The translations under genes were made by a program, and so were the position numbers. The notes beneath the pieces are model-generated. The model made no database searches. It saw only the letters and a list, made by a program, of their open reading frames with translations, and had not been told where the DNA came from. From an uncultured Bacillales bacterium (GTDB lineage: Bacteria; Bacillota_I; Bacilli_A; RF39; UBA660): DNA of 44,551 bases. Below, piece by piece: positions 2,510-26,092 of the stretch. Position 1 is the first letter of the stretch; the number at the start of each line of letters is the position of its first letter. The stretch covers positions 1-44,551 of the forward strand of contig CAMJTE010000002.1 in NCBI GenBank assembly GCA_946408655.1, read 5' to 3'.

Positions 2510-5500
2510 ATGCGTAGAGATAAAATTAAAGTATTAATAATTGCTATTATTATTTTGACTTTTATTACTTTATTATTTTTGTTTGGTTTGAAAGTTTATA
2601 ATGAAAGTTTTAAAAATTTTAAATTAAATGGATATATAATTGCGAATAAAAATAATTATAAAACTGATAGATATTATTTTAATAAGGACCAAAAGTATAA
2701 AAAGACGGCTAATAAAAACGTTGTTTTTAAAACTACTAATAAAACTTCAGTGTCTGTTGATGATAATTCTTTTGTTCATTATAGTAATAATTCTATTTCT
2801 ACACTTAAGAAAGCTGCTATTTTAGATTTAGATAATATAAATGATACTACTATAAAGTATTATAATTTGTATGAAGGTAGCGTATTGAATAAAGTAAATG
2901 ATAAATATAGTTTTACCAACTTAGGGAAAAAGATTTCTTTGGGGAATATCGTTATTAAGATTAGTAAAGAAAAATATTTAGTTGCTGCTCCTGTTTTAAA
3001 ATTAAATATCGGAGATGAACAAAAGGAGATAAAGGACAGTTATATTGAAATTACTTTTTTTGATGGTAATATTGTTAAAATTGAAAATCAAGAAGAATCG
3101 TATAAAAATATTCAAAGTAATATTTTAATTGAGATTGGAGATATTACAATAAATTTAAACAATAAAGAAATATCTAAAAGTGGTGAAGTAAAACTAAATT
3201 TAGAGCAAATAACTATCGATTCAGATGATAATATTGATATATCTGAGAAAGAAAATCAAGATGTTGAAGAAGCGACTGTAAATAGTACTGAAAATAAAAC
3301 TAGTAACACGGATAATAATAGAAATGCTATTGATATACCTAATGTTGAAAAAGATACAATAGAATCTTATGATACATCTGAGATTATAATTAATAATAAA
3401 AAATATAAAGACCCAGTATTTACAATTGAAAAATTAGATGTTGGAATTAATTCAATTGATAGTTTAATTACTGTTGATGATCCAGACAATTTATTAAAGG
3501 GGAATATCTATATTAATGTTTATAATTCGGAGACCAGTGAGAAGATTTATGAATATAAACAAGGTAATGAAATAAGTAATATTAGTGTTAAATTAAATAC
3601 TTTGAATTATAACACTAATTATATACTTGTTGTAAGTGCAGATTATGAAAAAGGAGATATTACATATAATAAAGATTTTATTCAAAAGACATTCACTACA
3701 TCTGATTTAGGAATTAGTATTACTAAGAATTATATTACAAAGGATTCTATTTCTCTTAATTTTGAGAAGGGGACATATTCTAGCGTGGATAGTTTTACTT
3801 TAAAACTATGTGATGATAAAAATGAATGCACTTCAAATGATGTTGATATAAATAATTCTAGTGAGTTAGTTTTTAATGGATTAAAAGAAAATACCAAGTA
3901 TTCAGTTTCTATTGATAGGGTTACAACATCTGCTTCAGGAATATCAACAACACTAGAAGCAGAATTTGATAAATATACATATAGTACACTTAAGAAAACT
4001 CCAAGCATTGAAAAAATAGATGTTTCAATAAATAAAAAGAATAATATTTTTACTTTAACGCCAGTGGGAGTGATAGATCCTGATGGCGCGATAAAAAGCT
4101 ATCAATATGAAATATATGAGGTAGTTGCTGGAGAATTACAATCTACACCGACTAAAAAAATAGAGAAAAAAGATAATAAATCATTTGATGTAGAAGTTTC
4201 ATCAAGTGGGGTATTGAATACTCTAAAAAGAAATACTGAGTATAAATGTTATTTGACTGTTGTTTATAATGACAATACAAAAGACATTTATATGGAACCT
4301 CTATATACAACCCTATATATGGGGGGAAATGAGTACCCTAGTGTTGACTTTGAAGAAACAGGTAATGGTATTACATTTGAATCGGTTAATGGGTTTATTA
4401 AAGTAAATGATGTTTCACATGCTATTCGCTCAAATTCTTTAATAGTCGAATATTCGTCAAGAAGCTCCTCTATAGGTGGTAGAGTCGTATATAGTGATTT
4501 TACTCCTGGAGATACAAGTATTAATATACCAATAAATATAACTGGATTGAAAAGCAATGAATCATATAGTTTTAAAGTTATATCAAATAATATTGAATTA
4601 GGGGATATTAATTCAACAATTAGTAATAATGAAACTGATCAGTATGTTGAACTTAAGAACTTTAATATAACTACCAAGACACCTAATAAAATAAAAGTAA
4701 ATGTTAATCAGAATGATTCTTTGGGAAACTTTTTCTCATTAAACATGAAATTCGATGACAAAGAAATTCTTGAATTAAATACATTAAGTATTTTAAAACT
4801 TTCGTTTTCTCAACAACCGGATTTTAGTGAAAACAATAATAATGAATTGGTTGAAATTGAATACAAAGATAGTAATAATAATATATATGAAAGTAATATT
4901 TCAAGTTGTTTTATTTCAAACACTAATTGTAATGATATACCTTTAAATGAAAGTTTTAATTTAACTTCATCTAGCCTAGGGTTAGACAGATTTGATTTTA
5001 ACGGAAATATATTTATGAAAATAGAAGGTGTTGATTATGCTGGTAATGTAATTGATTTTTCAATTGTAAATAACGGAGTAAATACTAATACTAATATTTT
5101 TAAAATTAACACTATTGATTCATTAAAACCTCCTACAAATACAGCTGATTCATTGATGATAGAAAGTATTACTAAGCAAAATGCAGTGGCACTTGACAAT
5201 AAAGTTTATAGTGATAGAATGTTGGATGATACAGTTGTTGGCTTTGCTGTTTATCCAAGAAGTTATTTTAATTCTGGAAATTCTTATAGAAATTATAAAG
5301 TAAAAATGTATTATGATTTATATAAGACAACGTATAATGAAACTAAGAAAAGATATGAGTGTATAAAGGATGATGGTTTGCTTATAAAAAAATATGAATA
5401 TGGTTTAGTTGATAATCCAAAAGATGCAAAACAGAAAATGTATTTTGATGATGTTCAATATAAAAGAGGAAATTACTATTGCATAAATTGGTATGCAGAA

Positions 5501-7819: not shown

Positions 7820-7828
7820 GAGGGAATA

Positions 7829-9265
7829 ATGAGAAAATTAGGCAAAAAAAATCAAATATTGTTTATTATTCTTTCCTTGATTACTGTTTTTATGATTGCA
7901 ATCTTTATATATGTAATCATGCTTATGTTAAGAAAAGGTAATAATATATATGAATTAAAGAAAAACAGTTACTTATATAATTCTGATTATGAGATTATAG
8001 AGGTTCAAGGTAGTTTAAAATTAAAAAAGAGTTTTGATGGTAATTACTATTTAAAAGATAATCGTAAAAGTACAAAGATTGGTAAGAATGTTATACTAGA
8101 TAATTATGGTAATCATAGACTATATCTATATGGAATTTTATATCAAGTTTTTACAGATGGATCGATAGAAAAATTATCTAATGAAAATAAAGTATTAAAA
8201 ACGCCACCAACTAAATTCTTTAAACTAGGTGATAGAAAATACCTGATGGTTGATGATAATATTTCTTCATCAGATTCTTCTATTAAAACATCTGGATATT
8301 TAATTGTAGAGATTAATAAAGAAGGAAATGCAACACTTGTTAATGATAAAATGAATATTAAAACTATTAATCCAATTATTTTATATGGTAGTACTTTTGA
8401 TTTTGATATCGCTAATGAAAAATTGATTTATCATAATCAAGAGATTGATTTAAAAAATATTATTGGTAGTAGTAATAAGTATAAAAAAGAAACTAAAAAA
8501 GATGAAAAAAAAGAAACTGATAATAAAACTAGTACTACAGATAATACAAATTCTTCAAATCAAAATACTAGCGATTATTATGAACAGTATTTAAAAGATG
8601 TTATTAATAGTTATAATAATTTATATAATAGTGTAGCTAACATAAATGACTCAGTTGCGACTAAGGTAAATAAAGGAGATATTTACTATGAGTTTAGTAA
8701 ATGGGCTGTTATGAAGAATGTTTTAGTATCTAGTACATCTATTACTATTAATTATAATATATATGATCCTAACGATGAATATAGTAGTGTATTTGTATAC
8801 GTTACAGATAAAAAGAATTATGATAAAAGAGTTGAATTAAATGAAAATGCTACTAGCATGAGTATTACGAACCTTGATCCGAATGAAAGATATGTTATTA
8901 ATTTTGGTTATGTTCTTTCAGAAGATGGAAGGGAAGAAGTTATTGATGTTTCAACTGTGACAACAAAGAGTCCTAAAATTGAACTTAAAATTACTAAAGT
9001 TATGAAAAATAAAGTATACTATATTATTAATATGGATGATAAATTTGCTTTATTAAATAGTGATTTAGTACTATATAATCGTAATAGTAATGAGATGATA
9101 AAAAAAGAGAATATTGATAATATTACAAAAGGGTATAATGGTGTTATTGAATATGATAGTGATATTAATCCAAATATTCAACTAAAATTAGAAAATATGT
9201 GCTATAATATAAGTGATAACAAATGTATAGGATATCTAACTGTTAATGTTAGTGATGCATTATAG
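7829..9265 (+). CDS. Membrane-anchored surface protein (478 aa) with the same architecture in miniature
   Basis: SD AGGAGGG lies 9 nt after the previous stop. The N-terminal anchor is ILFIILSLITVFMIAIFIYVIMLML, and a K/E/T/N-rich linker lies at ~8474-8573. An FN3-like motif is present (ITNLDPNERYVINFGYVL). Confidence 0.8.
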   Translation: MRKLGKKNQILFIILSLITVFMIAIFIYVIMLMLRKGNNIYELKKNSYLYNSDYEIIEVQGSLKLKKSFDGNYYLKDNRKSTKIGKNVILDNYGNHRLYLYGILYQVFTDGSIEKLSNENKVLKTPPTKFFKLGDRKYLMVDDNISSSDSSIKTSGYLIVEINKEGNATLVNDKMNIKTINPIILYGSTFDFDIANEKLIYHNQEIDLKNIIGSSNKYKKETKKDEKKETDNKTSTTDNTNSSNQNTSDYYEQYLKDVINSYNNLYNSVANINDSVATKVNKGDIYYEFSKWAVMKNVLVSSTSITINYNIYDPNDEYSSVFVYVTDKKNYDKRVELNENATSMSITNLDPNERYVINFGYVLSEDGREEVIDVSTVTTKSPKIELKITKVMKNKVYYIINMDDKFALLNSDLVLYNRNSNEMIKKENIDNITKGYNGVIEYDSDINPNIQLKLENMCYNISDNKCIGYLTVNVSDAL

Positions 9266-9528
<263 letters not shown>

Positions 9529-9529
<1 letters not shown>

Positions 9530-10257
9530 TGACAGATGTATTTATAATAATAACTATTCTTTTTGTTATGTCAGTAATAATATTCTTTCTTATAAAAAAA
9601 ACAGTTAAGGATATTAATCATAACTCAAAAGAATACTATTTATTGAAATTACAAGACTATGATAATTTGATTAGTGATAATAAGGAAAAGCAAATAAATA
9701 CAAAGGTCGAAGAAAATGTGATAAACAGAGATTTGACTTCTGTAAAAGAATCATCAGAAAAAGTGCTGCTTGAATCAAATCCTGAATATCAGATCGATGA
9801 TTTTTTAAAGTTAGCTAAAGATGTAGATAAAGAGTTTAATATTGATGTTAATGAAATTATACGTAATTTTTTGGATAAAAAAATAATTGATACTAGTATG
9901 AATTATTTTTCTAATTTAGTATTGGTAAAGAAAAAAATTAATAGTATTGGATTATATAATCTTGCAGTAGATTTAAATGGACTTAAGAAGTTATTAACAG
10001 AGGTTAATCAGATCGATGAATTAATAGTAAATAAATATAAAAGTTCATCGTATGAAAAAAGTATCATGGGATTCTATAATTTTTTAAAAAGCGAAATTAA
10101 TTATAATGATCCTATCATATATATAGAAGTAGGAGATAAGAACATTAGTTTTAATAATGTTAATGATAATATAAAAACAGTCTATAATCCTAATATTTAT
10201 AAGGGAATAATAATTAAATACAAAAATAATATGTATGATTATAGTTTAAGTTTTTAA
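9529..10257 (+). CDS. Single-pass membrane protein in the b/delta position (peripheral-stalk candidate)
   Basis: The ATG overlaps the c-like stop by 1 nt (TAATG). It has an N-terminal TM (VFIIITILFVMSVIIFFLI), a charged helical region and then a globular C-terminal part. The assignment rests on its position between c and alpha, as in atp operons; no sequence motif was recognised. Confidence 0.5.
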
Positions 10258-10266
10258 GGAGGATAT

Positions 10267-11590
10267 ATGGATAAAAATGGGGAATTAAGTTCTATAAACG
10301 AACAGATTAATAAAATAAAAAATGAAAATAATAAATATACTTTAGGAAATATTATTTATATTCAAGATTATATTATTCATGTTATTGGACTAGATGATGC
10401 CTTCTTTTTTGAAAGAGTAGTTATAGGTACAGATAACATAGGATATATCACTAAAATTGAAGCAACTTATGCAGTGGTTGCAATTATAAAGAAGAATGGT
10501 GAAATATCTGTTGGTGATAGTGTTCATAGAACTAATGAACCATTTTTAGGTATATATTCTAATAGTGCGATAGGACGTGTTATTGATATATTTGGAGTAG
10601 ATAGGTTGACTGATAAAAAGTTTAAAGATATCTTAAAATTAAATATTGAAACTACCAATATTCCGATTGTTAATAGGGCTAAAGTATCAAGACCACTATT
10701 AACAGGAATTACAGGTATTGATTTGATATATCCAATCGGTAAAGGACAAAGACAATTAATAATCGGAGATAAAAAAACAGGGAAAACACAAATATGTATA
10801 GATACAATTGTTAATCAAAATGATAAAGGGGTTATATGTATCTATAATGCAATTGGTAAAACAAAAAAAGAAGTAAAGCAAATTTATTATGAATTATTAA
10901 AGCGTGGGGCAATGAAATATACTGTTATAATTGCTGCGTTCTATGAGGATGCACCAACTGTTTTAACTCTTACCCCTTATTTTGCTTTATCAGTAGCTCA
11001 ATTATATATGAGTAATAAATATGATGTTTTAGTTGTTATTGATGATTTGAAAAAGCATGCAGATGCTTATAGAGAAATAGGTCTTATGTCTTCTAAAACT
11101 CCAGGACGTGATGCATATCCTGCTGATATATTTTATTTTCACTCTAGACTATTAGAAAAAGGTTGTCAACATAAAAATGGAGGAAGTATCTCTATATTAC
11201 CAATAATGGAAACAAAATCAGGAGATATTACAGATTATATATCTACAAATATTATATCTATTACAGATGGTCAAATTGTATTATCATCAAAGAACTTTGA
11301 TAAAGGGGAAAGACCAGCAATCGATTACGGTCTTTCTGTATCTAGATTAGGCGGAGCAGTACAGGATGCTAATATGAAAAAATTGGGTGCCAAGGTAAGA
11401 AGTAAACTGCTTACATATTTAGAAACTAGAGATATATATGAACTTGCAAATGCCGATGAAATGACAGATGAGTTAAGAAATAGATTATTTGAAGGTAAGA
11501 AGATTGTGGATGCATTAAAGCAATATAAATATAGTCCTATTACTCCAAATGAAATGATGGAAAAACTTAAATTTGTAGAAGAGGAAAATA

Positions 11591-11598
<8 letters not shown>
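10267..11598 (+). CDS. F1-ATPase alpha-subunit-like protein (443 aa, shortened)
   Basis: Walker A GDKKTGKT (canonical GDRQTGKT). Further matches to alpha-subunit signatures are DDLKKHADAYREIGLMSSKTPGRDAYPADIFYFHSRLLEKG, GSISILPIMETKSGDITDYISTNIISITDGQIVL and RPAIDYGLSVSRLGGAVQ. Confidence 0.9.
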
Positions 11599-13942
<2,344 letters not shown>

Positions 13943-13943
13943 A

Positions 13944-14471
13944 ATGTTAGACTATTTAAATAAAATTATTAATTATTTTCCATTCTTTATTTCTTTTTTT
14001 GTAATAATTATATTTTTATCTGTTATTTTGGATAAAGTTATGAAGAAGAATAAAAATAATATTAAAATTTTTGGATTATTTATGGGATTAAGCAATAGAA
14101 ATATATTATCATTGACATTTATTACTACTTCTTACATATTTTTTATATGGCAGTTATTCTCTAAATCAGTTGATTTAGTAACACTCGGTGTGATTTTTAC
14201 ATGTTTTGTTTTAACAGATATAGTTTCAAAACAATATATAAAAATTATTTTTTCCATAATAAGCTCTGTATTACTTTATCTAGGATTATATTGTAAATGT
14301 GTTTTCTATGATTATATAACAACTATTCACTCATCATTCATCGAAATTATATTATTAATACTTTTAGTTTTATTTTTATTCTTCTATATAAGTTATTTTT
14401 TAATCAAGAAGGCTGACTATATAGTTGTCCAAAATAAATATATAAAAAAAATGAATGGTAAAGATTCTTAA
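13944..14471 (+). CDS. Polytopic membrane protein (175 aa, ~5 predicted TM helices), unknown family
   Basis: It starts 1 nt after the epsilon-like stop and has an SD AAGGAG. The sequence is highly hydrophobic. No a-subunit signature (conserved Arg in LRLFGN context) was recognised. Confidence 0.7.
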   Translation: MLDYLNKIINYFPFFISFFVIIIFLSVILDKVMKKNKNNIKIFGLFMGLSNRNILSLTFITTSYIFFIWQLFSKSVDLVTLGVIFTCFVLTDIVSKQYIKIIFSIISSVLLYLGLYCKCVFYDYITTIHSSFIEIILLILLVLFLFFYISYFLIKKADYIVVQNKYIKKMNGKDS

Positions 14472-14486
14472 ATTTAAGGAGGAATT

Positions 14487-15206
14487 ATGAATATTAGCAA
14501 ATTACTTAATAATAAGTTATTTAAAGTTATAATTGGTTTAATACTTACTATTTTTCTAGCACTTATTATTTTTATGGTAATAAGAATTAATAATAAAGAG
14601 TATAAATATGAAATTCAAGATGAGAAAGTTTACACTTATATTGGTGAGAGAAAATATGAGTATAATTCTAAGATTACAGTAGATGCAACTGGAAGTGTAT
14701 CTAAGATAAAAAGTAAACGTGCTTCTTTAGAAATATCTTCATATCCAATATATTATACAACAAAAAAACAAGTTGTATTTGCATCAAAAATGGCTTTGAT
14801 AAATCCACTTAATGATATCTCACAAAACTCGACACAAAAAATTTTTACAATTAATAGAACAATAAATAATGTTTATATGAATAGTAATGGTAAAGAGATA
14901 GATGTTGGTGAATACTTCTTATTCAATGGGAATGATATGTATTTTTTCTTAGATAGTGTCGATATTTCATTTAATAATTATAAAGAGACATTACCACCTT
15001 TTTCATACGTTATACATGATATGGCAAATGAATTATATATATATAATTATGATAGAGATGAAATTAATAAATTTAAAGAAATTACATCAGATGTTATAAT
15101 TAGCACAAGTAATTATTCAATTAATTTAGCTGATGATTCGGTTAAATGTGGTGATAACGAGGCTCTTTTAATTAAAAATATTGAATTTTTAGATTCATTA
15201 GAATAA
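14487..15206 (+). CDS. Membrane-anchored protein (239 aa) consisting of the anchor plus the stand-alone juxtamembrane module
   Basis: SD AAGGAGG. The N-terminal anchor is FKVIIGLILTIFLALIIFMVI. The rest resembles the first ~200 extracytoplasmic residues of the 1769-, 478- and 3135-aa proteins (alignment by eye). Confidence 0.7.
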   Translation: MNISKLLNNKLFKVIIGLILTIFLALIIFMVIRINNKEYKYEIQDEKVYTYIGERKYEYNSKITVDATGSVSKIKSKRASLEISSYPIYYTTKKQVVFASKMALINPLNDISQNSTQKIFTINRTINNVYMNSNGKEIDVGEYFLFNGNDMYFFLDSVDISFNNYKETLPPFSYVIHDMANELYIYNYDRDEINKFKEITSDVIISTSNYSINLADDSVKCGDNEALLIKNIEFLDSLE

Positions 15207-15225
15207 TGATATTGGTGGTGATTTG

Positions 15226-18200
15226 ATGAAAAAGATTATGGTATCTATCGGTGTATTATTTATTATAATGATAATTATTTTAATATTATCATTTACTAAG
15301 ATTGGTTTTTTCCCAGAAGATGGATATATAATAATGTCATCAAAATTGGAGGCAAGTCTGTTAAATGGTGACGGAACAACTGTAAAGGTATATAAAATAA
15401 ATAGAAATCAAAATATTTATAAAAGGTGGAATAATATATACGTTGGGGAAAATAATAAGAAAAAGATTTATGATGAAACCCCACTGTTCTCACAAGATAA
15501 ATCAAGGATTATTAACTTGTTTTCTGAAGGTAATGCAATTAGCAGTAATTATGAAAAAGAAAAACTATATAAAAATATAGCACTCTCGAATGGTAGATTA
15601 TATAATTATCACGATATGAAAACAGTTGATGATAATAACTACATATTCATGGAATTAGATAATAACATATTTATAAATTCATATGACGTTGAAGTAAATA
15701 CTTTACTTACTAAAACTATAATCCCAAAAAGTTCATTTATATATTTTCTAAAAGATGAGATTAGATATTATTATTATAAAGATGGTAAATATATATATGA
15801 TACAATAGTTGGAGTAGATTTAAATAGTAATATTATAATTAATGAAAATAATACTATTTATTATGATTTTTTAGATAAACTTGGGGTTTTTTCAAAAAAA
15901 CAGAATGAACCAGATAAAGAAATAGAGCAAGATGAAAATAGTGACCAGAATAGTCAAAATATTAATGAAGAGAAAAAAAAAGATAATAGTACTTCGGAAG
16001 AATATATTGCTCCTAGTGTTAAATTATCCAATATGACTACACAAACTTATTCTGCATATTTTAACTTATTAATTAATGATTCACAAGATAGAATAAAAAA
16101 AACAGTTACTATCGAATTTATAAAAGATGGTAAAACATATTATAAAAAATCTTATAAGGATTCTAATAATTATGATGTTTTAGGATTATATCCAAATCAA
16201 GAGTATAGAGTTGTTGGTAGTTATGTTTATAATAATAAAAATAATAACTTAGTTAAAGTTGAGTTTTTTAATGAGATTATTAAGACTAAAAATATTGATA
16301 ATAAAACTATTAAATTTGATTATCAGATTGAAAACAATTACTCAAATAAACTTAATATAAACAAATTACAATTAAATATTGATGACAAAGATTTATTAAG
16401 TGGTATATCTGCAATTGGAGTTAAAATAGATAATAGGGAAATATTATTGGATTCTAAAAGTACAAATGATATTAAAAACGGAAATAGTGTTAAACTCTCC
16501 ACTGGAGAGGTGTTAAAATCAAATACAAAATATGACTTTGAATTTGTCGCTTATGATATTGCGCAAAATGAAATTCCAATTAGTAATGGTAAACAAAGTT
16601 ATACCACATCAAAGAAAATTCCAACATTTAAGGTTAGTATCAATAAAAAATCATATAGTACAGCAGATATTAATGTCGAACTAATAAACAGAGATGATGT
16701 AAAACTTAATAATGTTAGATATGTATTAAAAGCTAATTCGAGTGGGGATGCAATGATAAATGATGTTAATTTAAGCGGGGATACATCAATCATTAAATTA
16801 ACCAAATTAGATGAAGATAATATATACAATATACAAATAATTGGTGATTATGATTTAGCGGATGGTAATGGCATTGTAAAGAATGCTATTTTGAAAGATA
16901 ATATTGAGTTTGTAACTGAATCATTAAAGAATCATCCTATCTATTATGAATTTATAGCAAATGATATAACATCTAATAGTGCAGATATAAAGTTACAATT
17001 GAACAACTATTATAAAAATGATTTAATCAATCAATTAATCTCAGATATAAAGATCAAATTGTCTGAGACAGAGGATTATATAGTTTTGACTCCCGATGAA
17101 GTGAATGAAATTAAATTAGGGAAACAAGTTAATATAAAGTTTGATAATTTGAAATCTAATAATGAATATAGATTAGAGATAGACACAAAATTAACTGAAG
17201 CTGATAAAAAATTAAATGTTAAATCAAAAATTAAGTCCGATTCTTTTACAACATTTAAGAAAAAACCTGAAGTATCGTTTACAAATTTATTTACTGCTAA
17301 ACATTATATTAACATAGAATATATGGTAGATGATAAGGATGAAGCATTATATAATGGAAAAGCTTACTTAAAAGTTTATAAAATCGATAGTAATTCTTGC
17401 GTTGATGAGAATGATCTTGGATGTGAAATTGAATCAACAGTTTATAGTGAACTAATTAGTACAAAAAATGGGGAAAAAATCGGAAATATCGAAATTAACA
17501 AATTAGACCCTGGAATTTATAAGATAGAAGTAATCGCAAAAAAATTATCTGGCCTCATTGAAAATAATGGTTCTAATAAAACAATTGCTAGTATACAGTT
17601 TAAGACAAATGATGCTATTGATGGAAATATAAATCTAAATTATTTAATGAAAAAATCAGATGGAATTAATTTATTTGACATTAATGATTCTGAAAAAATA
17701 AAATATCTACTTACTGGTACAGATGCATCTGCTAACTATAAAATGAATTTAAAAAATAATACTATAGAAATGAATGTTACAAATGGTAAGGCCATATTTA
17801 AGTTGTATATGCCAGAGTATAATAACAAAATACTTAGAATGTCATATATACCAACGATTGAAACTGATTCACAAAATGCTCAAATAAAGATAATATGTAC
17901 AGGGAATAAATGTACTGACAAAGCATTAGTTGCAAATAATACAAGAGAATATGTAGATGTTAAAGTATTAAATAATTATATTTCATTTGATATTAGTGTT
18001 CCAGATTCAACAAATGAAAATATTAAATTAATTTTAAAGGATTTAATGATATCGGAAACTGATTCTATTGATTATTCCCCTTATAAATCTAATAATAAAT
18101 TTATTGGCAGTTTTAATATTATTGGTAATGAACTAGATTCCATTAGATATGTTACAAGGATACACGATTATAAGAATGATATAGATATAAGTGATAATAT

Positions 18201-21200
18201 AATTGAATGTATAGGAGATGATTATTGTAATTATAATTATTTTGATTTTAAGAGAGCTTTACATTATAGTGTAGATTTGTATGTGATAGATGAAAATACA
18301 TCTTTAGAGTATAAAATAGATGAATTATCATTTACAACTGAGAAGGAAATTAGGAGTATTAATAATATTAAAGAGTTTTTTGCAGTTCATACCAAAGGAA
18401 GTTATATTGTAAATGAGGATCTTGATGTATCTAGTGTTAGTAATTCAATTCCTCAGTTTTCGGGTAGTATAGATTTTAATGGGCATAAAATAATTACAGA
18501 TATTTCAAAAAGAAATACTATATTTGGCCACCTAGGTAGTAGTGCTGTAATCAAAAACTTTGTATTAGATATTAAGTGTGCAAATAAAATACCTAATGGT
18601 GTGTATGTGTTAAACACATATAATGATGGAAAAATTGAAAATTTTATTGTCAATTATTTAGAAGAGAATTATATGTATGATGATACACCAAATAAAGTTG
18701 ACACTTTTGTTACAGCATATAATAATGGAATAATTCAAAACTTTATTATTAATTTTAAAAAAACATTTACCGTTAATTATATTTTTTCAGCTCTTTCTTA
18801 TTCAAATACTAATATAATTAGAAATGGATATTTGTATGGAAAAAATATAAAACTTGTACCATCTACAACATATAATTCTATATATACAGTTGGACTAGTT
18901 TCTATATATTCTTCAGGCGATATTTATAATATTTTTTCAACTGTTGGTATAGATAGTGATTATAATTTTGAAGGTACACAATATAATGTTAATACGATCG
19001 GTACACTTGTTGCTAGTAATCAAAAAAATGTCTCAAATGTTTATTTATATACAAGTGGAAAATTTAAGTTCAAAAACGATGTTGTAATTGGGGCTTATAA
19101 TAACACATCAACAAAAGTAACAAATACATACTATATAGCTGAAAATAGTATTACAGATAATAGAGATAGAAAATCTGTTCGAACTTTTAAATCATCTTTA
19201 TTATCGCCAGAATTTCATAAGAATACCTTGAATGATAAAAATGAAAAAATATTTAATATTACGAATAATGTAATAAATGGCTATTATCCACAGCTAAGAC
19301 TTAGTAACTCAATGCCAAGACAGGATTTAATTGAACTCCCTACAGTGAATACAAATATTGGAGATATCGATTTTGTAAATATTAAAAACACAAATGCTTG
19401 TTATGATAAATATGATTATTATAGTGACAATCCTAGGTATATACATGAATGCAACTTATTAAAGGATAGTAATTATCTTAAAAGTTTAAATAGTAATTAT
19501 ACTGATGAGGAGATTAATTCCATTGTAAGTAAAGTTGAAAATAACAATTATGAATATATTGTTGAAGTAAATTTTGACAATAAAGAGCTAAAACCCATTA
19601 ACAGTATTTCTATTGATAAAATTAATAAAATAGATATATTATCGCAGTATAATGATGTTGAAACAGGATACGTTGTTGCTATATTAGGATTAAAAGATAT
19701 ACAGCAATATAAATCGCTTTATACACTAACAAGTATTAATGGTGTAGATATAAGTAATAGGTATATTGAGCTTGAATTATATAAGTTAATTGCTACAAGT
19801 AAAAATAATGAAGAAAATATTAATTCATTTATTAATGCAATTCAAAATCCTGGAAGCTATGTTCTTATGAATGATATAGATTTTAAGAATTCTAAATATA
19901 ACTCAGTGATAGTTAATAATGCAAATATTGATGCAAATAACCATAAATTTACAAATTTAGAAAATGGAACATTGTTTAAAGAATTAAACTTTTCTACATT
20001 AAAAAATTTAAATATTGATAATTATAATTATAAGTTTGATATCGGAAATAATTATGGTGGTTTTATAGGTCAAGCAAATTATTCTACAATTGACAATGTT
20101 CATATTAATAATGGTAAGTTTCAAATTGATAATTCGTTTGGAACAATAGTTTATTCTACAATGCAAACTTATATTAAGAACTCTTCTGTTAAAAATTCAG
20201 ATATTATTTCTAAAGAAAACAATAACTCATATAGATATGTTGGAGGAATATCAGGATATAATCAATATTCTAGGATTACTAATTGCTTTGTTTCTAATCT
20301 AAATATTGATGTGGAGACAAATACAAATTTTATTGGCGGAATAACTGCATATACTTCTGATTCAAGAACATTAGTTTCTAATACATATAGTGATGGAGTA
20401 ATTAAGTCGTATGGAAATATGATAGGGGGGATTGTCGGAAATAATAGCGGTACTATAAATAATTCGTATTCAAAAATGACGCTTTTTACTAGTGGGAACA
20501 AAATTGGAGGAATTGCTGGTGAATCATCATCATTCTATGTAAGTAATAATTTATTTTTAGGAAATATAATAAATACTAGTGAAAACGATGATGTAAGGGC
20601 AATTGTTGGAAATTTGGATATAAGCTCAAGTAATTATTTATATGATAAATCTAGAATAGACAGTAATTATAGTTGGACTGGAGAGTTGATAATTGATTCT
20701 GAAACTTTAAAATCATTATTGTTCTACACTAAATTAATAAATTATAGCGATTCATATAAAATTGATGATTCTATATCAAATGAAATTTTACCTAAATTAT
20801 TCTTTGATTCAAGAAATGATTATTTAGTTCCTAATCAAGATGATTTGTATGTAAATAATAATGCCTCATCAAGTATTAATTTCTCTTTGAAAAATTTTGA
20901 ATATCGTGAAGATGAGAATGAATTTAGCGTTATATTAAGCGTGGATAATTATTTAGATTTTGATAGTTTAGATTTTAAAGACATTGATGTTATATCTGAT
21001 GGATTAAAATACAAATCTAATTCTTATAAAGATGGAATTTTAGAAATAGTATTTACTCCAAAACTATATTTAGATTATTATATGATTAGTTCGATAAATA
21101 GAATTAATATTAATGGTAATGAAATAGATTCTAATAAAGTTGATATAAGTATTGATAAAAAAATTTATAAAAGAATATCATCTGTAAATGATTGGATGAA

Positions 21201-24200
21201 TATTGATGGAGTGGCACAAAATTACATTTTAACGGATGATTTAGATTTTTCAGATTACGCTAATAATTCAAAAATAGTTAATAAGAACATTAATAGATTA
21301 GAATGTGAAAAAGAAGATTATTGTATGATTCAAAATATAGAAAGTAATATAAACCATTCATTGATAAATCATTTATTAATTTCTGTTTCAAAAGTTTATT
21401 TTAAAAATATTAGGTTAAATTCCGCTTTAACTGATAATTATGGAATCATTAATACTTTGTACGGTTCCATTAATAATGTAGTATTTGATGAAATAAATAT
21501 AACTGGTTTTGAAGGTGTTGGAATAATTGCGAATGATTATTCATATAATATATCTAATATTAATATGAATAATATTGAAATTACAGGTGCATCAAATATT
21601 GGTGGTTTATCTGGAATTTCTTATAACAAGGAAATGAAAAATATAAATGCTAAGAGTATAAACATAAATGTTAAGAGAGACAATGATAAAGAAAATAGTA
21701 ATATTGGTGGCTTAATTGGAGATAACTATGTTTTTGGTGCTGATTCAAAGGCTTATCAATCTAATGTTAATTTATCTTGTTTAAATATTAGGTACTCTGA
21801 TAATAATAGTTATAACAATAGTACTATAAAGAATGTTGGAGGATTAATAGGTCAGGGAAGAGTTATTACTAACGCAACAATAGATGGATGTGATGATGGG
21901 ACTCCTTCAATAATTAATCTTCCAAATGCTAATAATATTGGTGGTTATGCAGGCTTTCTTCCTGAAAACGCATTAGGATATAGTGGTATTGGGGGTGGAG
22001 AAGAATCTGCAATTAAAGAAAAATATACATCATTTAACATTTCAAATACTTTTATAAATGGTGGAGATTCTGTAGGTGGTTATGTTGGTTCTATGGATAT
22101 AGGTACATATATAATTACTAATGTTAAAGTTTCAAATAATACAATAGTAAGTGGTAAAAATAGTGTTGGAGGTATAATTGGTAGCTGTAAAGATGTAGTC
22201 TTTAATAATATATTTGTTGATGGGATAACTGTTAACGCATCAGCTGATAATGCTGGAGGAATTGTTGGTAAAGGTTATACATATAATACGGATGTTGCTG
22301 TTAAAGATAGCACTGTCATCGCAAATAATAATGCTGGAGGAATTACCGGATATTTATATGTTTTATCATTTGGACATCCTCAGTCTAGAATAATAGTAGA
22401 AAATACGAATATTACAGCAAGGAGAAATAATGCTGGAGGTTTAGCGGGGGCATTTTATTCTCCACAATCTTCTGGTATAAATGCATTGACCAATGCGTCA
22501 ATTACAAACACAAAAAATTGTAGGATTAAAAGTTATACCAATTCTGGTGGAGCCGTAGGATATTATAATAATATTAATGCAAATGGGGCTTATAATTATT
22601 TAGAACTATATGGCATTCACATATTAAATTACGATATAGAATCTACAAGCGGCTATGCTGGAGGTTTGTTAGGTGCTTATGCAAATGATACTAATACAAT
22701 ATTAAATCATACAATATATAATAAAAATTATACAAATATTATATATGCTAATATCTATTCACCTATTCATTCCGAAAATCTGTATCCTGCTTTAAAAGAT
22801 TATAATAGTGATAGCGGCAATTATGTAAATAATTATGTTTATAAGTACAATAAAATAGTAAATGGCGATGAAACATATAAAGTAAATGATAAAAATATTG
22901 ATAATAGTGATATTGAAATTAACAAGTCAACAGGAAATTATTTGTTTACTTATGCTGATGTAAATATGTTTAAAGATGAAACCATTTATGATAAAGCATT
23001 TTTTGATATAAGTAATATTAATACTCATTTTCCAAAAATTATTTTTAGTTCATCCGGAAATGTATCGTTAAATAACTTTAGTCAGATTCCATATCCTGAT
23101 CAAAGTAGTTTAACATCATTAAATTCTTCAATGTCTAATAATAGTAGTGCGCTAAATATTACATATACTGCCAGCAATTACAATCAAACATTAGATATAC
23201 CAGATATATATGTATATCCAAGTGATGTAGATAAAATAAATATTGATTTTTCTGGTTACAATCAAGACCTAAAATTTAAAATTAATGATGGCGATTACAA
23301 GGTCATTGATAAGAAGACTTATACGTTATATTATAATTATTTAGAGAATTTTACTATTACTATTACTGATGGATTTAATAATTATAAATATGATTATAAA
23401 AAAGAAGATTTAATAAATGATGTATTTACTTTAGATAAAAATTATTACATTCTTAAAGAGAATAATCTTATAACAAATGATAATCTTATTGGAAATTATA
23501 TTCATATATTTAACGGGAAGTTGTTAACAAATGATAGTAAGGTAGTAGATTTATCTGATAAATCTGAATATACAATTCCATATAGCAATTTTGAAGAAAC
23601 AACTCAAAAACCATTATATGAAATTAGGTATCAAGATGATATAATAGAAACATACTACTCATATAGTGATATAAGTGGTACTATAAAAAATAATATAGAA
23701 TTCTTATCAAAGAGTAATGAAATATATATGATATCTGCGTTTGGTATTGATACAAATATAAAAAGTAAAAACTTTATAATTGATTCTTATAATGGAAGCA
23801 AGTATGAAGTTGTATTAAAGAATGGAAAATTATATAATTTATATGATAATTTATTATTCCCTGATGGATTTATTAATGAAGGAATAAAATCTATTTCTAA
23901 TAATATTGATGGAAATTCTGATTTAATTGCTGTTTTATATGACAATGGAAACTATATGTGTTTTAACTATAAAACAAAAGAAATAATTACATCAAATAAA
24001 AATAGTTATGAACCTATTACGAATTATTTGGGAAGAAACCTAAAAAGGTCAATTACGTATAAAGCAAATGCGTTAAATAATGTTCCAAATGAAAATATTG
24101 AGTCATATAATGAAAGTAATAAGTTGGTTGATAAGTTAAATGAAAATCCTATTGTTAATGTAGTTGAGAACAATTCAGATAATATCAAAGATATTAATAT

Positions 24201-24630
24201 TGATAACAACAAAAATAATGATAGCACCAATGATAAAACCAATGTTACAAATAGTAATAAAAATGATATTCATAAATCTGAAAATAAATCGAAAGTAACT
24301 CAAGATTATAATGTAAATAATACCGATAAATATAATTATACTGTTTACTATAATCAAGAAACAAATGATTATGAGGTTTATGAATTAAATTCATTTATAT
24401 CTAATGAAAACACAGTAAGTTTAAATGATACTTCAACTAATGAAACTTCAGTTAATGAAGTAATAAATTCCGATAATACATTAAAGAAATATTATTACAG
24501 TAATAAGAAGAATAAAAATAGTAAGACATGGAGATATATTTTTGAATTAATATTCATTTCTATTATTACTTTGATATTTGTTTTATACTTATATCTACGT
24601 AACAAAAAGTTAAAGTATAATTCTCATTAA
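15226..24630 (+). CDS. Giant surface protein (~3134 aa) anchored at both ends, with juxtamembrane module, linker, FN3-like array, three beta-helix/GLUG modules, N-rich tract and C-terminal TM
   Basis: The likely start is ATG 15226, since SD GGTGGTG lies at 15214-15220 and the track starts at TTG 15223. The N-terminal TM is VSIGVLFIIMIIILILSF. The C-terminal TM is YIFELIFISIITLIFVLYLYL followed by RNKKLKYNSH (~24530-24627). FN3-like motifs include LGLYPNQEYRVVGSYVY, LKSNTKYDFEFVAYD, NLKSNNEYRLEIDTKL and LDPGIYKIEVIAK. Confidence 0.85.
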   Translation: MKKIMVSIGVLFIIMIIILILSFTKIGFFPEDGYIIMSSKLEASLLNGDGTTVKVYKINRNQNIYKRWNNIYVGENNKKKIYDETPLFSQDKSRIINLFSEGNAISSNYEKEKLYKNIALSNGRLYNYHDMKTVDDNNYIFMELDNNIFINSYDVEVNTLLTKTIIPKSSFIYFLKDEIRYYYYKDGKYIYDTIVGVDLNSNIIINENNTIYYDFLDKLGVFSKKQNEPDKEIEQDENSDQNSQNINEEKKKDNSTSEEYIAPSVKLSNMTTQTYSAYFNLLINDSQDRIKKTVTIEFIKDGKTYYKKSYKDSNNYDVLGLYPNQEYRVVGSYVYNNKNNNLVKVEFFNEIIKTKNIDNKTIKFDYQIENNYSNKLNINKLQLNIDDKDLLSGISAIGVKIDNREILLDSKSTNDIKNGNSVKLSTGEVLKSNTKYDFEFVAYDIAQNEIPISNGKQSYTTSKKIPTFKVSINKKSYSTADINVELINRDDVKLNNVRYVLKANSSGDAMINDVNLSGDTSIIKLTKLDEDNIYNIQIIGDYDLADGNGIVKNAILKDNIEFVTESLKNHPIYYEFIANDITSNSADIKLQLNNYYKNDLINQLISDIKIKLSETEDYIVLTPDEVNEIKLGKQVNIKFDNLKSNNEYRLEIDTKLTEADKKLNVKSKIKSDSFTTFKKKPEVSFTNLFTAKHYINIEYMVDDKDEALYNGKAYLKVYKIDSNSCVDENDLGCEIESTVYSELISTKNGEKIGNIEINKLDPGIYKIEVIAKKLSGLIENNGSNKTIASIQFKTNDAIDGNINLNYLMKKSDGINLFDINDSEKIKYLLTGTDASANYKMNLKNNTIEMNVTNGKAIFKLYMPEYNNKILRMSYIPTIETDSQNAQIKIICTGNKCTDKALVANNTREYVDVKVLNNYISFDISVPDSTNENIKLILKDLMISETDSIDYSPYKSNNKFIGSFNIIGNELDSIRYVTRIHDYKNDIDISDNIIECIGDDYCNYNYFDFKRALHYSVDLYVIDENTSLEYKIDELSFTTEKEIRSINNIKEFFAVHTKGSYIVNEDLDVSSVSNSIPQFSGSIDFNGHKIITDISKRNTIFGHLGSSAVIKNFVLDIKCANKIPNGVYVLNTYNDGKIENFIVNYLEENYMYDDTPNKVDTFVTAYNNGIIQNFIINFKKTFTVNYIFSALSYSNTNIIRNGYLYGKNIKLVPSTTYNSIYTVGLVSIYSSGDIYNIFSTVGIDSDYNFEGTQYNVNTIGTLVASNQKNVSNVYLYTSGKFKFKNDVVIGAYNNTSTKVTNTYYIAENSITDNRDRKSVRTFKSSLLSPEFHKNTLNDKNEKIFNITNNVINGYYPQLRLSNSMPRQDLIELPTVNTNIGDIDFVNIKNTNACYDKYDYYSDNPRYIHECNLLKDSNYLKSLNSNYTDEEINSIVSKVENNNYEYIVEVNFDNKELKPINSISIDKINKIDILSQYNDVETGYVVAILGLKDIQQYKSLYTLTSINGVDISNRYIELELYKLIATSKNNEENINSFINAIQNPGSYVLMNDIDFKNSKYNSVIVNNANIDANNHKFTNLENGTLFKELNFSTLKNLNIDNYNYKFDIGNNYGGFIGQANYSTIDNVHINNGKFQIDNSFGTIVYSTMQTYIKNSSVKNSDIISKENNNSYRYVGGISGYNQYSRITNCFVSNLNIDVETNTNFIGGITAYTSDSRTLVSNTYSDGVIKSYGNMIGGIVGNNSGTINNSYSKMTLFTSGNKIGGIAGESSSFYVSNNLFLGNIINTSENDDVRAIVGNLDISSSNYLYDKSRIDSNYSWTGELIIDSETLKSLLFYTKLINYSDSYKIDDSISNEILPKLFFDSRNDYLVPNQDDLYVNNNASSSINFSLKNFEYREDENEFSVILSVDNYLDFDSLDFKDIDVISDGLKYKSNSYKDGILEIVFTPKLYLDYYMISSINRININGNEIDSNKVDISIDKKIYKRISSVNDWMNIDGVAQNYILTDDLDFSDYANNSKIVNKNINRLECEKEDYCMIQNIESNINHSLINHLLISVSKVYFKNIRLNSALTDNYGIINTLYGSINNVVFDEINITGFEGVGIIANDYSYNISNINMNNIEITGASNIGGLSGISYNKEMKNINAKSININVKRDNDKENSNIGGLIGDNYVFGADSKAYQSNVNLSCLNIRYSDNNSYNNSTIKNVGGLIGQGRVITNATIDGCDDGTPSIINLPNANNIGGYAGFLPENALGYSGIGGGEESAIKEKYTSFNISNTFINGGDSVGGYVGSMDIGTYIITNVKVSNNTIVSGKNSVGGIIGSCKDVVFNNIFVDGITVNASADNAGGIVGKGYTYNTDVAVKDSTVIANNNAGGITGYLYVLSFGHPQSRIIVENTNITARRNNAGGLAGAFYSPQSSGINALTNASITNTKNCRIKSYTNSGGAVGYYNNINANGAYNYLELYGIHILNYDIESTSGYAGGLLGAYANDTNTILNHTIYNKNYTNIIYANIYSPIHSENLYPALKDYNSDSGNYVNNYVYKYNKIVNGDETYKVNDKNIDNSDIEINKSTGNYLFTYADVNMFKDETIYDKAFFDISNINTHFPKIIFSSSGNVSLNNFSQIPYPDQSSLTSLNSSMSNNSSALNITYTASNYNQTLDIPDIYVYPSDVDKINIDFSGYNQDLKFKINDGDYKVIDKKTYTLYYNYLENFTITITDGFNNYKYDYKKEDLINDVFTLDKNYYILKENNLITNDNLIGNYIHIFNGKLLTNDSKVVDLSDKSEYTIPYSNFEETTQKPLYEIRYQDDIIETYYSYSDISGTIKNNIEFLSKSNEIYMISAFGIDTNIKSKNFIIDSYNGSKYEVVLKNGKLYNLYDNLLFPDGFINEGIKSISNNIDGNSDLIAVLYDNGNYMCFNYKTKEIITSNKNSYEPITNYLGRNLKRSITYKANALNNVPNENIESYNESNKLVDKLNENPIVNVVENNSDNIKDINIDNNKNNDSTNDKTNVTNSNKNDIHKSENKSKVTQDYNVNNTDKYNYTVYYNQETNDYEVYELNSFISNENTVSLNDTSTNETSVNEVINSDNTLKKYYYSNKKNKNSKTWRYIFELIFISIITLIFVLYLYLRNKKLKYNSH
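20230..22690 (+). repeat. GLUG-type (xGGhxG) beta-helix repeat region inside the giant CDS
   Basis: At least 15 copies of the motif are present: VGGISGY, IGGITAY, IGGIVGN, IGGIAGE, IGGLSGI, IGGLIGD, VGGLIGQ, IGGYAGF, VGGYVGS, VGGIIGS, AGGIVGK, AGGITGY, AGGLAGA, SGGAVGY and AGGLLGA. The DNA repeat AATAATGCTGGAGG recurs at ~22248, 22328 and 22427. Confidence 0.75.
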
Positions 24631-24721: not shown

Positions 24722-26092
24722 ATGTATAGTTCTTTTGTAAAATGTTTGAATTCAATTGTTAAATTAGATGAGAAAAGTTATGAAAATATTAAAAATCAAT
24801 TTGGAAAAAATACTGATTTGTATTTTGAGGAGTATATTTTATCAATAGATGAAACCGATTATGATAGTTATGATAAAGTTGATTATTATATTCGAGTAAA
24901 AAGTGATAATGATAATGATAAGGATATGGATATTTCAAATGATATGGATCCTAATTTTGTTATATATTATAACCAAATAAGAAAATATCCTATACTTGAC
25001 CAAAGGGAAGAAAAAGAAATAATTAGGAAAATAAGAGATTTAGAACTAGAGTTTAGAAAAAATAATATTAATGATAGTTACTTAGATGCAATTATGCTTA
25101 AGTATGGTTTTACTAAAGATTTGAAACATGATTTAGAATCGAGAAAGATACAGTTAAGGTATTTATGTAAAAATATAAATAATATAGATAATAATGATAT
25201 GCATATCTTTCAAATGTATGTTGATTATATAGATGCTAAGGAGTATTTTTATAATTGTAACTTAAGATTGGTTGTCTTTTTTGCCAAATTAATAGCTTAT
25301 AATACAAACGTTTTATTAGACTCTATTCAGAATGGTAATATTGGACTTATGAAGGCAATTGATAATTATGATTTAGATAAAGGAACAAAGTTTTCGTCGT
25401 ACGCTTCGTGTTGGATAAAAAATTATATTGCTAGGAATAATAAGTATAATAATTCAGGTTTGAAAACTCCATATCATATCATAGAAACTATGGACGCTTA
25501 TAAACGATTTATAAACGAATACTATGTTTTAAATGGTGTAATGCCATCATATGGTAAGAGGTTTGATTTTTTCTATGATGAGATGAAGAAGAAAGGTATT
25601 TACCAAAAGGAGACTGAAGACCAAAAGAAAAAAATAATATGTCAATATATGGAAGAGATAGAGATGGCTATTTATACGGAAAACGTTACTTCTTTAAATG
25701 TTTCTACGTCTTCAGTTGATGATGATAGAGTTGAGTTAATTGATTTAGTAGAAGATGAAAGTGTTGATATAGAAGAAAGTTTAAATAAGAGCGTAATAGA
25801 TGAAAACTTAAGATTGGTTTTTAATGAATTATCTAATCGAAAAATTTGTGTATTGTTACTTAGAAATGGAATTAAAATAAGTAAATACTTATCATTAGCC
25901 GAAACTAAAGAAGTTTTTAGTAAATTATCATATGAAGAAATATTTAGATTGTGGAATGGGAAATACTATTTTACGCTTAATGAGATAGCTTTATTATTCT
26001 CGGTTACTTCTGAGAGAGTTAGACAATTGGAATCAAATGGGATAAAAAAAATAAGAAAGTATCAAAAAAGATTTATTAGTTACTTAAAGTAA
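24722..26092 (+). CDS. Sigma-70 family RNA polymerase sigma factor (456 aa, group 1/2-like but divergent)
   Basis: Region 1.2-like DPNFVIYYNQIRKYPILDQREEKEIIRKI. Region 2 NLRLVVFFAKLI...IQNGNIGLMKAIDNYDLDKGTKFSSYASCWIKNYIARN. Region 3 KTPYHIIETMDAYKRF. Region 4.2 FTLNEIALLFSVTSERVRQLESNGIKKIRK. The N-terminus is acidic. Confidence 0.85.
   Translation: MYSSFVKCLNSIVKLDEKSYENIKNQFGKNTDLYFEEYILSIDETDYDSYDKVDYYIRVKSDNDNDKDMDISNDMDPNFVIYYNQIRKYPILDQREEKEIIRKIRDLELEFRKNNINDSYLDAIMLKYGFTKDLKHDLESRKIQLRYLCKNINNIDNNDMHIFQMYVDYIDAKEYFYNCNLRLVVFFAKLIAYNTNVLLDSIQNGNIGLMKAIDNYDLDKGTKFSSYASCWIKNYIARNNKYNNSGLKTPYHIIETMDAYKRFINEYYVLNGVMPSYGKRFDFFYDEMKKKGIYQKETEDQKKKIICQYMEEIEMAIYTENVTSLNVSTSSVDDDRVELIDLVEDESVDIEESLNKSVIDENLRLVFNELSNRKICVLLLRNGIKISKYLSLAETKEVFSKLSYEEIFRLWNGKYYFTLNEIALLFSVTSERVRQLESNGIKKIRKYQKRFISYLK

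Follow-up and report, generated by a model that had tools for sequence, protein, structure and literature searches.

The stretch of DNA analyzed here, the 44,551-nucleotide contig CAMJTE010000002.1 of an uncultured Bacillales bacterium (assembly GCA_946408655.1; referred to as the window), carries on its plus strand an operon of eleven genes between positions 2510 and 24630 which probably encodes a single ATP-driven machine of the membrane and the cell surface. The genes are arranged in the order giant1, p478, c, p242, alpha, gamma, beta, p79, p175, p239 and giant2. According to the sequences of c, alpha, gamma and beta and to the predicted fold of p242, the cluster is derived from an F1Fo-type ATPase, and the comparison of loci indicates that its motor genes are inherited as a block together with five membrane proteins, namely p175, p478, p239, giant1 and giant2. 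The assumption of a common machine is favoured by the set and the order of the motor genes (c, b/delta-like, alpha, gamma, beta and a gene in the epsilon slot).

To determine the distribution of the cluster, one genome per species was scanned, and 241 stretches encoding a relative were detected. In the best 80 loci, beta is at least 61% identical, and the gene arrangement recurs in at least 80 species-level genomes. Loci were annotated with family hidden Markov models (HMMs) and blastp, and the components were counted in those loci that possess enough flanking sequence. While alpha (71/71), p242 (69/69), p478 (66/66) and p79 (78/78) were present in every testable locus, gamma was found in 76 of 77, giant1 in 61 of 62 and c in 65 of 68 loci, followed by p175 (69/75), p239 (66/72) and giant2 (50/67). 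Of the six loci in which p175 was not recognised, five hold in this slot an unlabelled polytopic open reading frame (ORF) of 181-188 amino acids (aa). An earlier reading of the window, made from the sequence only, would have been contradicted by ATPase clusters that never adjoin such surface proteins; the clusters were nearly always located beside them. Relatives with 89-97% identity in beta keep all eleven genes. At approximately 67% identity, the block from giant1 to p175 is retained, and the next position, that of p239, is taken by an N-anchored protein of poor conservation. The species of the window is not represented in the 80 best loci of the genome collection, among which the best identity to the window beta was 69%.

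The hosts are uncultured gut Bacilli, some of them labelled Mollicutes, Tenericutes, 'Mycoplasma sp. CAG:956' or 'Clostridium sp. CAG:354', as well as Lachnospiraceae including the isolates Lachnospiraceae bacterium G11 and Ca. Merdisoma sp. HCP28S3_D10, and the actinobacterial isolate Bifidobacterium colobi LC6, whose locus (L063, NZ_JAFEJU010000010.1) has a GC content of 60%. All eleven genes, in unchanged order, are shared by Bacilli, Lachnospiraceae and the Bifidobacterium locus, and the system is conserved across two classes of Bacillota. Since the hosts with a higher GC content form one subclade nested within the low-GC diversity of a neighbour-joining tree of beta, lateral spread of the cluster is suggested. 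The B. colobi LC6 beta groups with that of Lachnospiraceae, and the locus looks as if it had crossed between phyla and then adapted in composition. GC contents of 25-41% were found in the loci labelled Thermoguttaceae (L081), Ignavibacteriales (L086) and Muribaculaceae (L053, L088), and these taxon labels may be wrong. A rearranged variant was encountered in L083, L084 and L088, the deepest branch of the beta tree. In these loci, a p239-like gene lies between p478 and c, and in L083 and L084 gamma follows p175 (L088 ends before that point).

The core of the cluster resembles the head of an F1-ATPase. Pfam matches were obtained for alpha (10267-11598, 443 aa; PF00006, 233.7 bits), gamma (11591-12358, 255 aa; PF00231, 85.7 bits), beta (12363-13706, 447 aa, GTG start; PF00006, 218.9 bits) and, among the other motor genes, for c (PF00137). 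The best PDB matches of the F1-like proteins are the F1 structures of Fusobacterium nucleatum and Bacillus. In beta, the Walker A motif GGAGVGKT, the catalytic GERSREG and the DELSNDD loop are invariant in nine diverse relatives, and across the family neither the Walker sequence [16 protein letters not shown] nor DELSNDD varies. Alpha has the Walker A motif GDKKTGKT. Its C-terminal domain is shortened. Because the alpha match begins at position 8 of the AtpA profile, the delta-binding N-terminal region is kept. In some relatives alpha is longer, reaching up to 890 aa in first-start ORF calls, while the window alpha is free of tails. Extra domains were considered as the cause of this length and rejected, as the four examples examined possess low-complexity tails. 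These tails are acidic or proline-rich, comprise approximately 110-400 aa and are located at the N-terminus in L001 (7517-9217) and L003 (7268-9196) and at the C-terminus in L045 (6678-9215) and L047 (6526-9198).

Within the NCBIfam library, alpha and beta are nearest to AtpA and AtpD, yet they remain below every curated cutoff, be it that of canonical synthases, of N-ATPases or of the mycoplasma Type 2 and Type 3 enzymes. Beta scored 446.4 bits with the atpD model TIGR01039 (cutoff 462.85) and alpha 384.9 bits with the atpA model TIGR00962 (cutoff 484.45), so that the cutoffs for canonical synthases were not reached; the best NCBIfam score of alpha was 411 bits against a cutoff of 554. Gamma exceeded the Pfam cutoff of 39.9 bits but attained merely 58.6 bits with TIGR01146 (cutoff 194). 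For calibration of the beta scores, the aligned parts of the F. nucleatum and Bacillus TA2.A1 beta subunits and full-length Escherichia coli AtpD served as canonical controls and were compared with the window beta and two distant family members. The atpD model gave 790-875 bits for the controls and 440-447 bits for the family (440-442 bits for the members L077 and L056), the Alternate-F1F0 model 577-587 and 389-396 bits, the MMOB1670 model 495-528 and 363-372 bits and the MSC_0618 model 422-432 and 378-404 bits, respectively. In the aligned positions, 41-47% of the residues of the family beta agree with canonical beta of Firmicutes or Fusobacteria, while the canonical proteins share 72-86% identity among themselves. 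In the neighbour-joining tree, the family members (59-100% identity) group closely together as a single clade, which is set apart by a very long stem. Nesting of alpha and beta within ordinary AtpA and AtpD proteins, which the sequence-only reading had named as evidence against its own proposal, was not encountered, as HMM scores, identities and the long-stem clade place beta far outside AtpD. Judged by the calibrated HMM scores, the family beta stands no nearer to the mycoplasma types than its canonical counterparts do.

The most conspicuous deviation from an F1Fo-ATPase concerns the ion path. The c-like subunit (9284-9529, 81 aa; PF00137, 30.7 bits) had been described in the sequence-only reading as lacking the canonical ion-binding site, and this holds true for the whole family. 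Neither Glu nor Asp occurs midway along helix 2 in the window protein or in any of the 57 distinct family c proteins. The canonical site, which lies 20 residues behind the loop Arg, is occupied by T, A, V or L in all 57; one of them has an Asp one residue before this position. The same 57 orthologs retain FLGxGIGxG, the loop [12 protein letters not shown], which is invariant in the family, and a C-terminal (F/Y)NP(L/F). The GxGxGxG helix, the R-(Q/N)-P loop and the NP(L/F) end are common to these proteins and canonical c subunits. In F-ATPases, the c loop touches gamma and epsilon. In L042, L049, L054, L056 and L087, which represent a 'Mycoplasma sp. CAG:956'-like subgroup, the c gene lies outside its usual slot between p478 and p242; partial c ORFs were found upstream of giant1 in L042 and L056.

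Absence of subunit a from the cluster, likewise claimed before, was corroborated by a phmmer search with E. coli AtpB against the six-frame ORFs of 90 loci, each with 10 kb of flanking sequence per side, in which nothing was found at E <= 10. Queries with E. coli b, delta, epsilon and AtpI did not reveal any resembling ORF in these loci at the same threshold either, whereas the E. coli c query produced 74 matches. Among the called genes of loci L001-L009, no match to Pfam ATP-synt_A was obtained. The only polytopic protein that might be thought of as a substitute, p175 (13944-14471), has four to five transmembrane (TM) segments by hydropathy and belongs to no assigned family; Pfam and PDB searches yielded no match, and profile searches and hhalign revealed no similarity to E. 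coli a or AtpI. Its conserved residues are restricted to G44, Y124, F144 and Y148, none of which is charged. Due to the lack of a conserved charged residue and of a detectable relative, p175 cannot supply the arginine of subunit a. It is a candidate for a membrane stator or an assembly factor. As far as can be judged from the sequences of the loci, the cluster has lost both prerequisites for moving ions, subunit a and the carboxylate of the c-ring, and does not appear to be an ion-translocating ATP synthase.

Two further motor genes were assigned by their predicted structure or their position. The p242 gene (9529-10257) encodes a protein with an N-terminal TM helix, as indicated by hydropathy. 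Its AlphaFold2 model (pLDDT 80) shows a long N-terminal helix comprising TM segment and stalk, a helical bundle (residues 92-192) and a small C-terminal beta domain. When this model was compared to the PDB by Foldseek, the top 24 matches were delta/OSCP subunits without exception, among them the mycobacterial b-delta fusion, and every match was weak by itself (E values from 1e-2 to 1; best match E = 1e-2, probability 0.91). Pfam OSCP was matched by two of 37 orthologs (E = 7.6e-4). An hhalign comparison of the p242 family with E. coli delta was not significant and aligned only the C-terminal signature. On the basis of the model fold, the Foldseek and Pfam matches and the alignment of this signature, p242 is read as a membrane-anchored, fused b-delta-type peripheral stalk. 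The p79 gene (13703-13942) directly follows beta with an overlap of 4 nt and thus occupies the position of an epsilon gene. The product comprises 79 aa and possesses no C-terminal helices. Pfam ATP-synt_DE_N was matched by two of 34 orthologs (E = 0.11), and the hhalign comparison with E. coli epsilon was non-significant (E = 0.35), yet it aligned the epsilon motif 'G.l.i.pgH.Pl'. Gene position and these weak matches make p79 a probable epsilon-like subunit, reduced to the beta-sandwich domain. For p242, p79 and p175, neither sequence profiles searched against PDB sequences nor hhalign comparisons with the single E. coli delta, epsilon, a and AtpI sequences provided a meaningful or significant match.

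Four proteins of 1769, 478, 239 and 3134 aa had been predicted to be anchored at their N-termini, and hydropathy analysis agrees with this for each of them. Giant1 (2510-7819, 1769 aa) has a TM segment at residues 8-26 and an FN3 domain (34.9 bits), which was also found in ten of 18 orthologs. The orthologs are 24-32% identical, are often collinear over their full length and, where complete, comprise about 1716-1803 aa in first-start ORF calls. Due to their full-length orthology and conserved size, the giant proteins behave like structural components and not like fast-evolving adhesins. The p478 gene (7829-9265) takes the gene position of subunit a. The AlphaFold2 model of its product (mean pLDDT 86) contains a TM helix (6-36), an all-beta domain (40-207), a disordered segment (227-288) and two beta-sandwich domains (292-477); Foldseek matched tandem FN3 structures. 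The all-beta domain of the model appears to be novel, and p478 did not match any Pfam family at its cutoff. An exhaustive search revealed 318 representatives of the p478 family among clusters of 50% identity. The best 150 of them mostly comprise 430-660 aa and are mostly aligned from residue 1; few are named, and those as 'hypothetical protein'. In the plasmid and phage collections searched, p478 was not found, and nothing in this search points to a plasmid or phage vehicle of the cluster. The smallest of the four, p239 (14487-15206), has a TM segment at residues 14-32, and orthologs were identified by blastp in 74 loci.

Giant2 (15226-24630, 3134 aa) is predicted to be anchored at both ends, by TM segments at residues 4-22 and 3104-3122, and both anchors are present in all three complete copies. 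The protein contains GLUG/beta-helix and glycine-rich repeats, and its length across hosts amounts to about 2800-3100 aa. Its orthologs are 23-30% identical, the better matches spanning 0.7-0.95 of the query, and carry the GLUG motif in 14 of 16 cases. In four of 16, an ALK/LTK glycine-rich domain was detected (best E = 1.4e-43; alignment A8), a domain that in animal receptor kinases forms a polyglycine-II helix lattice and is here located inside bacterial giant surface proteins. Neither giant1 nor giant2 has a relative in PDB or NCBIfam or a sequence relationship to any named family. According to the positive-inside rule, the bulk of giant1, p478, p239 and giant2 would be situated outside the cell, with only p242 facing the cytoplasm. 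With the TM segments removed, the membrane-proximal domains of giant1 and p478 proved to be homologous (hhalign E = 6.5e-6), while the links of p239 (E = 1-3e-3 without TM) and giant2 were marginal. For p239, a relationship with the modules that lie next to the membrane in giant1 and giant2 is possible. A common N-terminal module in all four anchored proteins was rejected, as it was largely an effect of the TM helices, and after their removal and with controls only the pair giant1-p478 was convincing. Since the four surface proteins are orthologous across hosts, they are, as judged by their sequences, components of the system and not chance neighbours.

The layout of the genes agrees with a single operon. 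All eleven ORFs listed in the sequence-only reading are present at exactly the coordinates given there. The tight packing described in it was found as well, with junctions ranging from -8 to +19 nt instead of the -8 to +18 nt reported. GGAGG-like Shine-Dalgarno sequences, assumed for every gene, precede ten of the eleven starts; the exception is the p242 gene, which has none. The p242 start overlaps the c stop by 1 nt, which suggests translational coupling of the two genes. Two start codons are possible for giant2, ATG at 15226 (yielding 3134 aa) or TTG at 15223. The earlier statement that there is no convincing terminator before 24630 was borne out by a simple scan which revealed no terminator-like site between 1800 and 28200. 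The absence of such sites fits one transcription unit, and the 3' end of the operon at 24630 bears no terminator mark in the same scan. The promoter scan was uninformative in this DNA of 25% GC, as 116 sites were found and approximately 131 expected, no better than in shuffled sequence. The gene for ribosomal protein bS21 lies upstream of the operon (2052-2246), and within the 264-bp leader that follows it, an Rfam scan detected no match and no riboswitch. Since the terminator and promoter scans give no boundary, the operon status rests on the gene junctions and the conserved synteny.

From these data a working model can be drawn. Apart from the ion path, the cluster contains every part of a rotary ATPase, and the interface of rotor and shaft, the c loop, is invariant. 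The head would consist of alpha3beta3, the rotor of gamma, the epsilon-like p79 and the c-ring, and the peripheral stalk of p242. Due to the intact catalytic residues and a p79 that lacks inhibitory C-terminal helices, it can be inferred that the enzyme would run solely as an ATP hydrolase, with the gamma/epsilon/c-ring rotor turning against the p242 stator. As there would be no ion pumping on which the torque could be spent, it might be handed to the anchored surface proteins, passing via membrane-embedded helices and the membrane-proximal domains of p478, p239 and the giants. As an outcome, the giants would move or change their conformation in cycles on the outer side of the wall, and gliding, regulated adhesion and release, or a force pulling on a bound partner are possible outputs. 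The c-ring of V-ATPases houses single-pass accessory proteins, so that such an arrangement is physically possible.

Several points weigh against this model. Giant2 was absent beside the cluster in 17 of 67 genomes, which may either manage without it or carry its gene at another site. In the libraries searched, no homology links the surface proteins to Gli or MIB/MIP proteins. The assignments of p79 to epsilon and of p242 to delta are based on weak statistics. The cluster is known here from sequences and predicted structures.

An unlikely alternative is that the cluster encodes a dedicated ATPase for export, insertion or assembly of the giants, comparable to FliI and FliJ, relatives of F1 alpha/beta and gamma, which power type III export. 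Alpha and beta indeed match FliI/SctN models at lower scores, giant substrates (1769 and 3134 aa) accompany the ATPase genes in nearly all genomes, and the strict co-inheritance would equally suit a dedicated chaperone or exporter. However, the scores with FliI/SctN models amount to 130-212 bits against cutoffs of 380-715, and with their distinct alpha and beta paralogs the proteins lack the features of type III export ATPases. These are homo-hexameric and possess no c-ring, peripheral stalk or epsilon, whereas the cluster has kept, besides distinct alpha and beta, gamma, the invariant c loop and a delta-like stator, a combination that would be sensible only for torque between rotor and stator. 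Moreover, the giants carry ordinary N-terminal signal-anchor helices, and no homolog of an export gate (FlhA/SctV-like) is present in the cluster.

Quite improbable, too, is a static or regulatory membrane platform, that is, an ATP-gated switch or an anchoring scaffold without sustained rotation. It would agree with the lack of subunit a, which leaves no proven membrane stator beside the ring, with the poor conservation of p175 and with the properties of the mycoplasma Type 3 complex, which is labile and has a large cytoplasmic pool of its F1-like part (PMC12994834). On the other hand, the stalk, the c loop for binding of gamma and epsilon and the catalytic residues were all kept while beta diverged to 59-67% identity, which would be costly for a scaffold. 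That the genes encode a divergent ion-translocating F-type ATPase or synthase with subunit a elsewhere and the surface genes as mere neighbours is very improbable, since the canonical gene order, the intact F1 catalytic residues, the name 'F0F1 ATP synthase subunit beta' given to some members by the NCBI pipeline and a beta score just 16 bits under the AtpD cutoff are opposed by the missing carboxylate in 57/57 c proteins, the absence of subunit a from all 90 loci, canonical controls with about twice the family score on the AtpD model, and a synteny with orthologous giants that is kept across classes. Bifidobacteria have a normal atpBEFHAGDC operon, and the cluster would therefore constitute a second set in the B. 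colobi host.

The sequence-only reading had compared the operon to the F1-like ATPases of mycoplasmas. This comparison stands as a functional analogy but not as membership in the Type 2 or Type 3 families, as shown by HMM cutoffs and gene content. The Type 3 'F1-like X0' ATPase was described by Beven 2012 (PMC3369863) and Berlureau 2026 (PMC12994834) and is required for the antibody-cleaving MIB-MIP surface system (PMC12994834), which provides a precedent in function for the proposed machine. Both systems have an F1-derived head with alpha-, beta-, gamma- and epsilon-like subunits and an intact Walker A motif. Furthermore, Type 3 genes lie beside surface proteins, often in one operon, the surface function needs the ATPase, and the mechanism proposed for it is a transfer of ATP energy across the membrane to surface proteins. 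The seven Type 3 genes encode, in this order, a 12-TM protein, a small cytoplasmic protein, gamma, epsilon, a signal-peptide protein with two C-terminal TM segments, alpha and beta (PMC12994834). Type 3 has neither a c subunit nor a b/delta homolog, and its alpha is deprived of the N-terminal helix (PMC12994834). By contrast, the present cluster retains c, a b-delta-like stalk and the alpha N-terminus, has other membrane and surface partners and occurs in walled hosts. The 12-TM protein was not found in any locus, and the scores with MSC_0618_beta (396 bits, cutoff 570) and MSC_0619_alpha (298 bits, cutoff 520) stayed below the Type 3 cutoffs. The linkage to surface proteins is stronger than in mycoplasmas, and the partners are not MIB or MIP, as no Pfam or NCBIfam match was obtained.

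With the Type 2 G1-ATPase of Mycoplasma mobile, a gliding motor that works with the surface proteins Gli349, Gli521 and Gli123 and an F1-like enzyme thought to drive giant 'leg' and 'crank' proteins (PMC11864180, PMC8406192), the cluster shares single-pass anchored partners of several hundred kDa. However, G1 beta has an N-terminal dimerisation domain of about 300 aa, its motors are assembled into chains of twin units, and there is no c-ring. The window beta (447 aa) is devoid of the Type 2 N-terminal extension, the scores with glide_MMOB1670 (373 bits, cutoff 850) and glide_MMOB1660 (367 bits, cutoff 600) did not reach the cutoffs, and PDB entry 9io5_A scored 306 bits compared to 362 for canonical F1.

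Canonical F1Fo operons (atpBEFHAGDC) have the order c, b/delta, alpha, gamma, beta and epsilon in common with the cluster. They differ from it in that the cluster is without subunit a and the c carboxylate, has one 242-aa protein in place of b and delta, an epsilon cut to 79 aa, shortened alpha and gamma subunits and five extra membrane or surface genes. The N-ATPase resembles the cluster in being a second, horizontally mobile F-type operon beside the normal enzyme. It differs by the presence of subunit a, of a c subunit that binds ions and of AtpQ and AtpR, and its genes (atpDCQRBEFAG) follow the order beta-epsilon-Q-R-a-c-b-alpha-gamma, which differs from that of the cluster. Its models TIGR03305 (390 bits, cutoff 752), TIGR03324 (344, cutoff 750) and TIGR03323 (25, cutoff 282) were not satisfied. 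The mycobacterial b-delta fusion (PDB 7njk chain d) is similar to p242 in that a membrane-anchored stalk helix and a delta/OSCP domain are united in one polypeptide, but it comprises about 440 aa compared to 242, shows no significant sequence similarity, and the complex of p242 is without subunit a.

Thus, by its sequences the cluster lacks features that would make it a member of mycoplasma Type 2, Type 3, canonical F1Fo or N-ATPases, and the Type 3 and Type 2 G1-ATPases are, by analogy, its nearest functional counterparts. The suspicion that the arrangement is not a described system was strengthened, as no description was found in open-access papers and bioRxiv. By keeping rotor ring and stator in walled bacteria, the cluster comes close to the border of a categorically new machine. 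A more far-reaching and tentative proposal is that it adds a third lineage to the mechanical motors derived from F1, none of the others occurring beyond the wall-less mycoplasmas. It would be a complete engine of head, shaft, c-ring rotor and stalk which has given up ion transport and uses the ATP-driven rotation of its ring to move or reshape two giants that reach through a Gram-positive wall.

The surroundings of the operon are those of an ordinary chromosome. The window, which appears to be one entire metagenomic contig, has a GC content of 25%, and nearly all its genes are located on the plus strand. Because of nearby genes for a PASTA-PBP, a peptidoglycan deacetylase and SpoVS, the host can be regarded as walled, in agreement with the earlier interpretation. 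Downstream of giant2, at a distance of 92 nt and without a terminator-like site in between, starts a plus-strand gene (24722-26092) which could be co-transcribed with the operon or regulate it; its product of 456 aa combines sigma-70 regions 2 and 4 with an N-terminal extension of roughly 170 aa that has no explanation so far. Each of two plus-strand genes (28088-29242 and 29226-31028) encodes an unusual fusion, in which VanZ is joined to RDD or DUF975 to ABC_trans_CmpB. Both genes adjoin genes for a polysaccharide deacetylase with SH3 domain and the PASTA-PBP and belong to an envelope-related block directly downstream of the operon. A tRNA gene (37665-37738, plus strand) is followed by a truncated gene of the phage-integrase family (37872-38429, minus strand, 185 aa), and the pair is probably the remnant of an element integrated at the tRNA site. 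At the contig start, where the GC skew changes sign, the minus strand encodes a 330-aa HTH_28/HTH_29 protein (841-1833) and a 108-aa ORF (508-834), which may be a transposase-like pair.

F1-like ATPases powering surface proteins were formerly thought to be a peculiarity of mycoplasmas, while the cluster exhibits the same principle in gut Firmicutes that possess a wall. Even after two decades of work on M. mobile, the way in which force passes from such motors across the membrane is unsolved. With a recognisable c-ring and stator and eleven well-defined, conserved parts, this question becomes structurally tractable, and Lachnospiraceae bacterium G11, Ca. Merdisoma sp. HCP28S3_D10 and B. colobi LC6 are available as cultured carriers. 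The annotation of members now named 'F0F1 ATP synthase subunit beta' can be corrected, and two very large families of hypothetical giant proteins are given a context. If the proposed machine is true, common gut bacteria, culturable Lachnospiraceae and a Bifidobacterium among them, would possess a prokaryotic surface motor of a new kind that serves for gliding, grasp and release or pulling, and it may reveal an unrecognised behaviour, such as movement, attachment or release, of abundant gut commensals.

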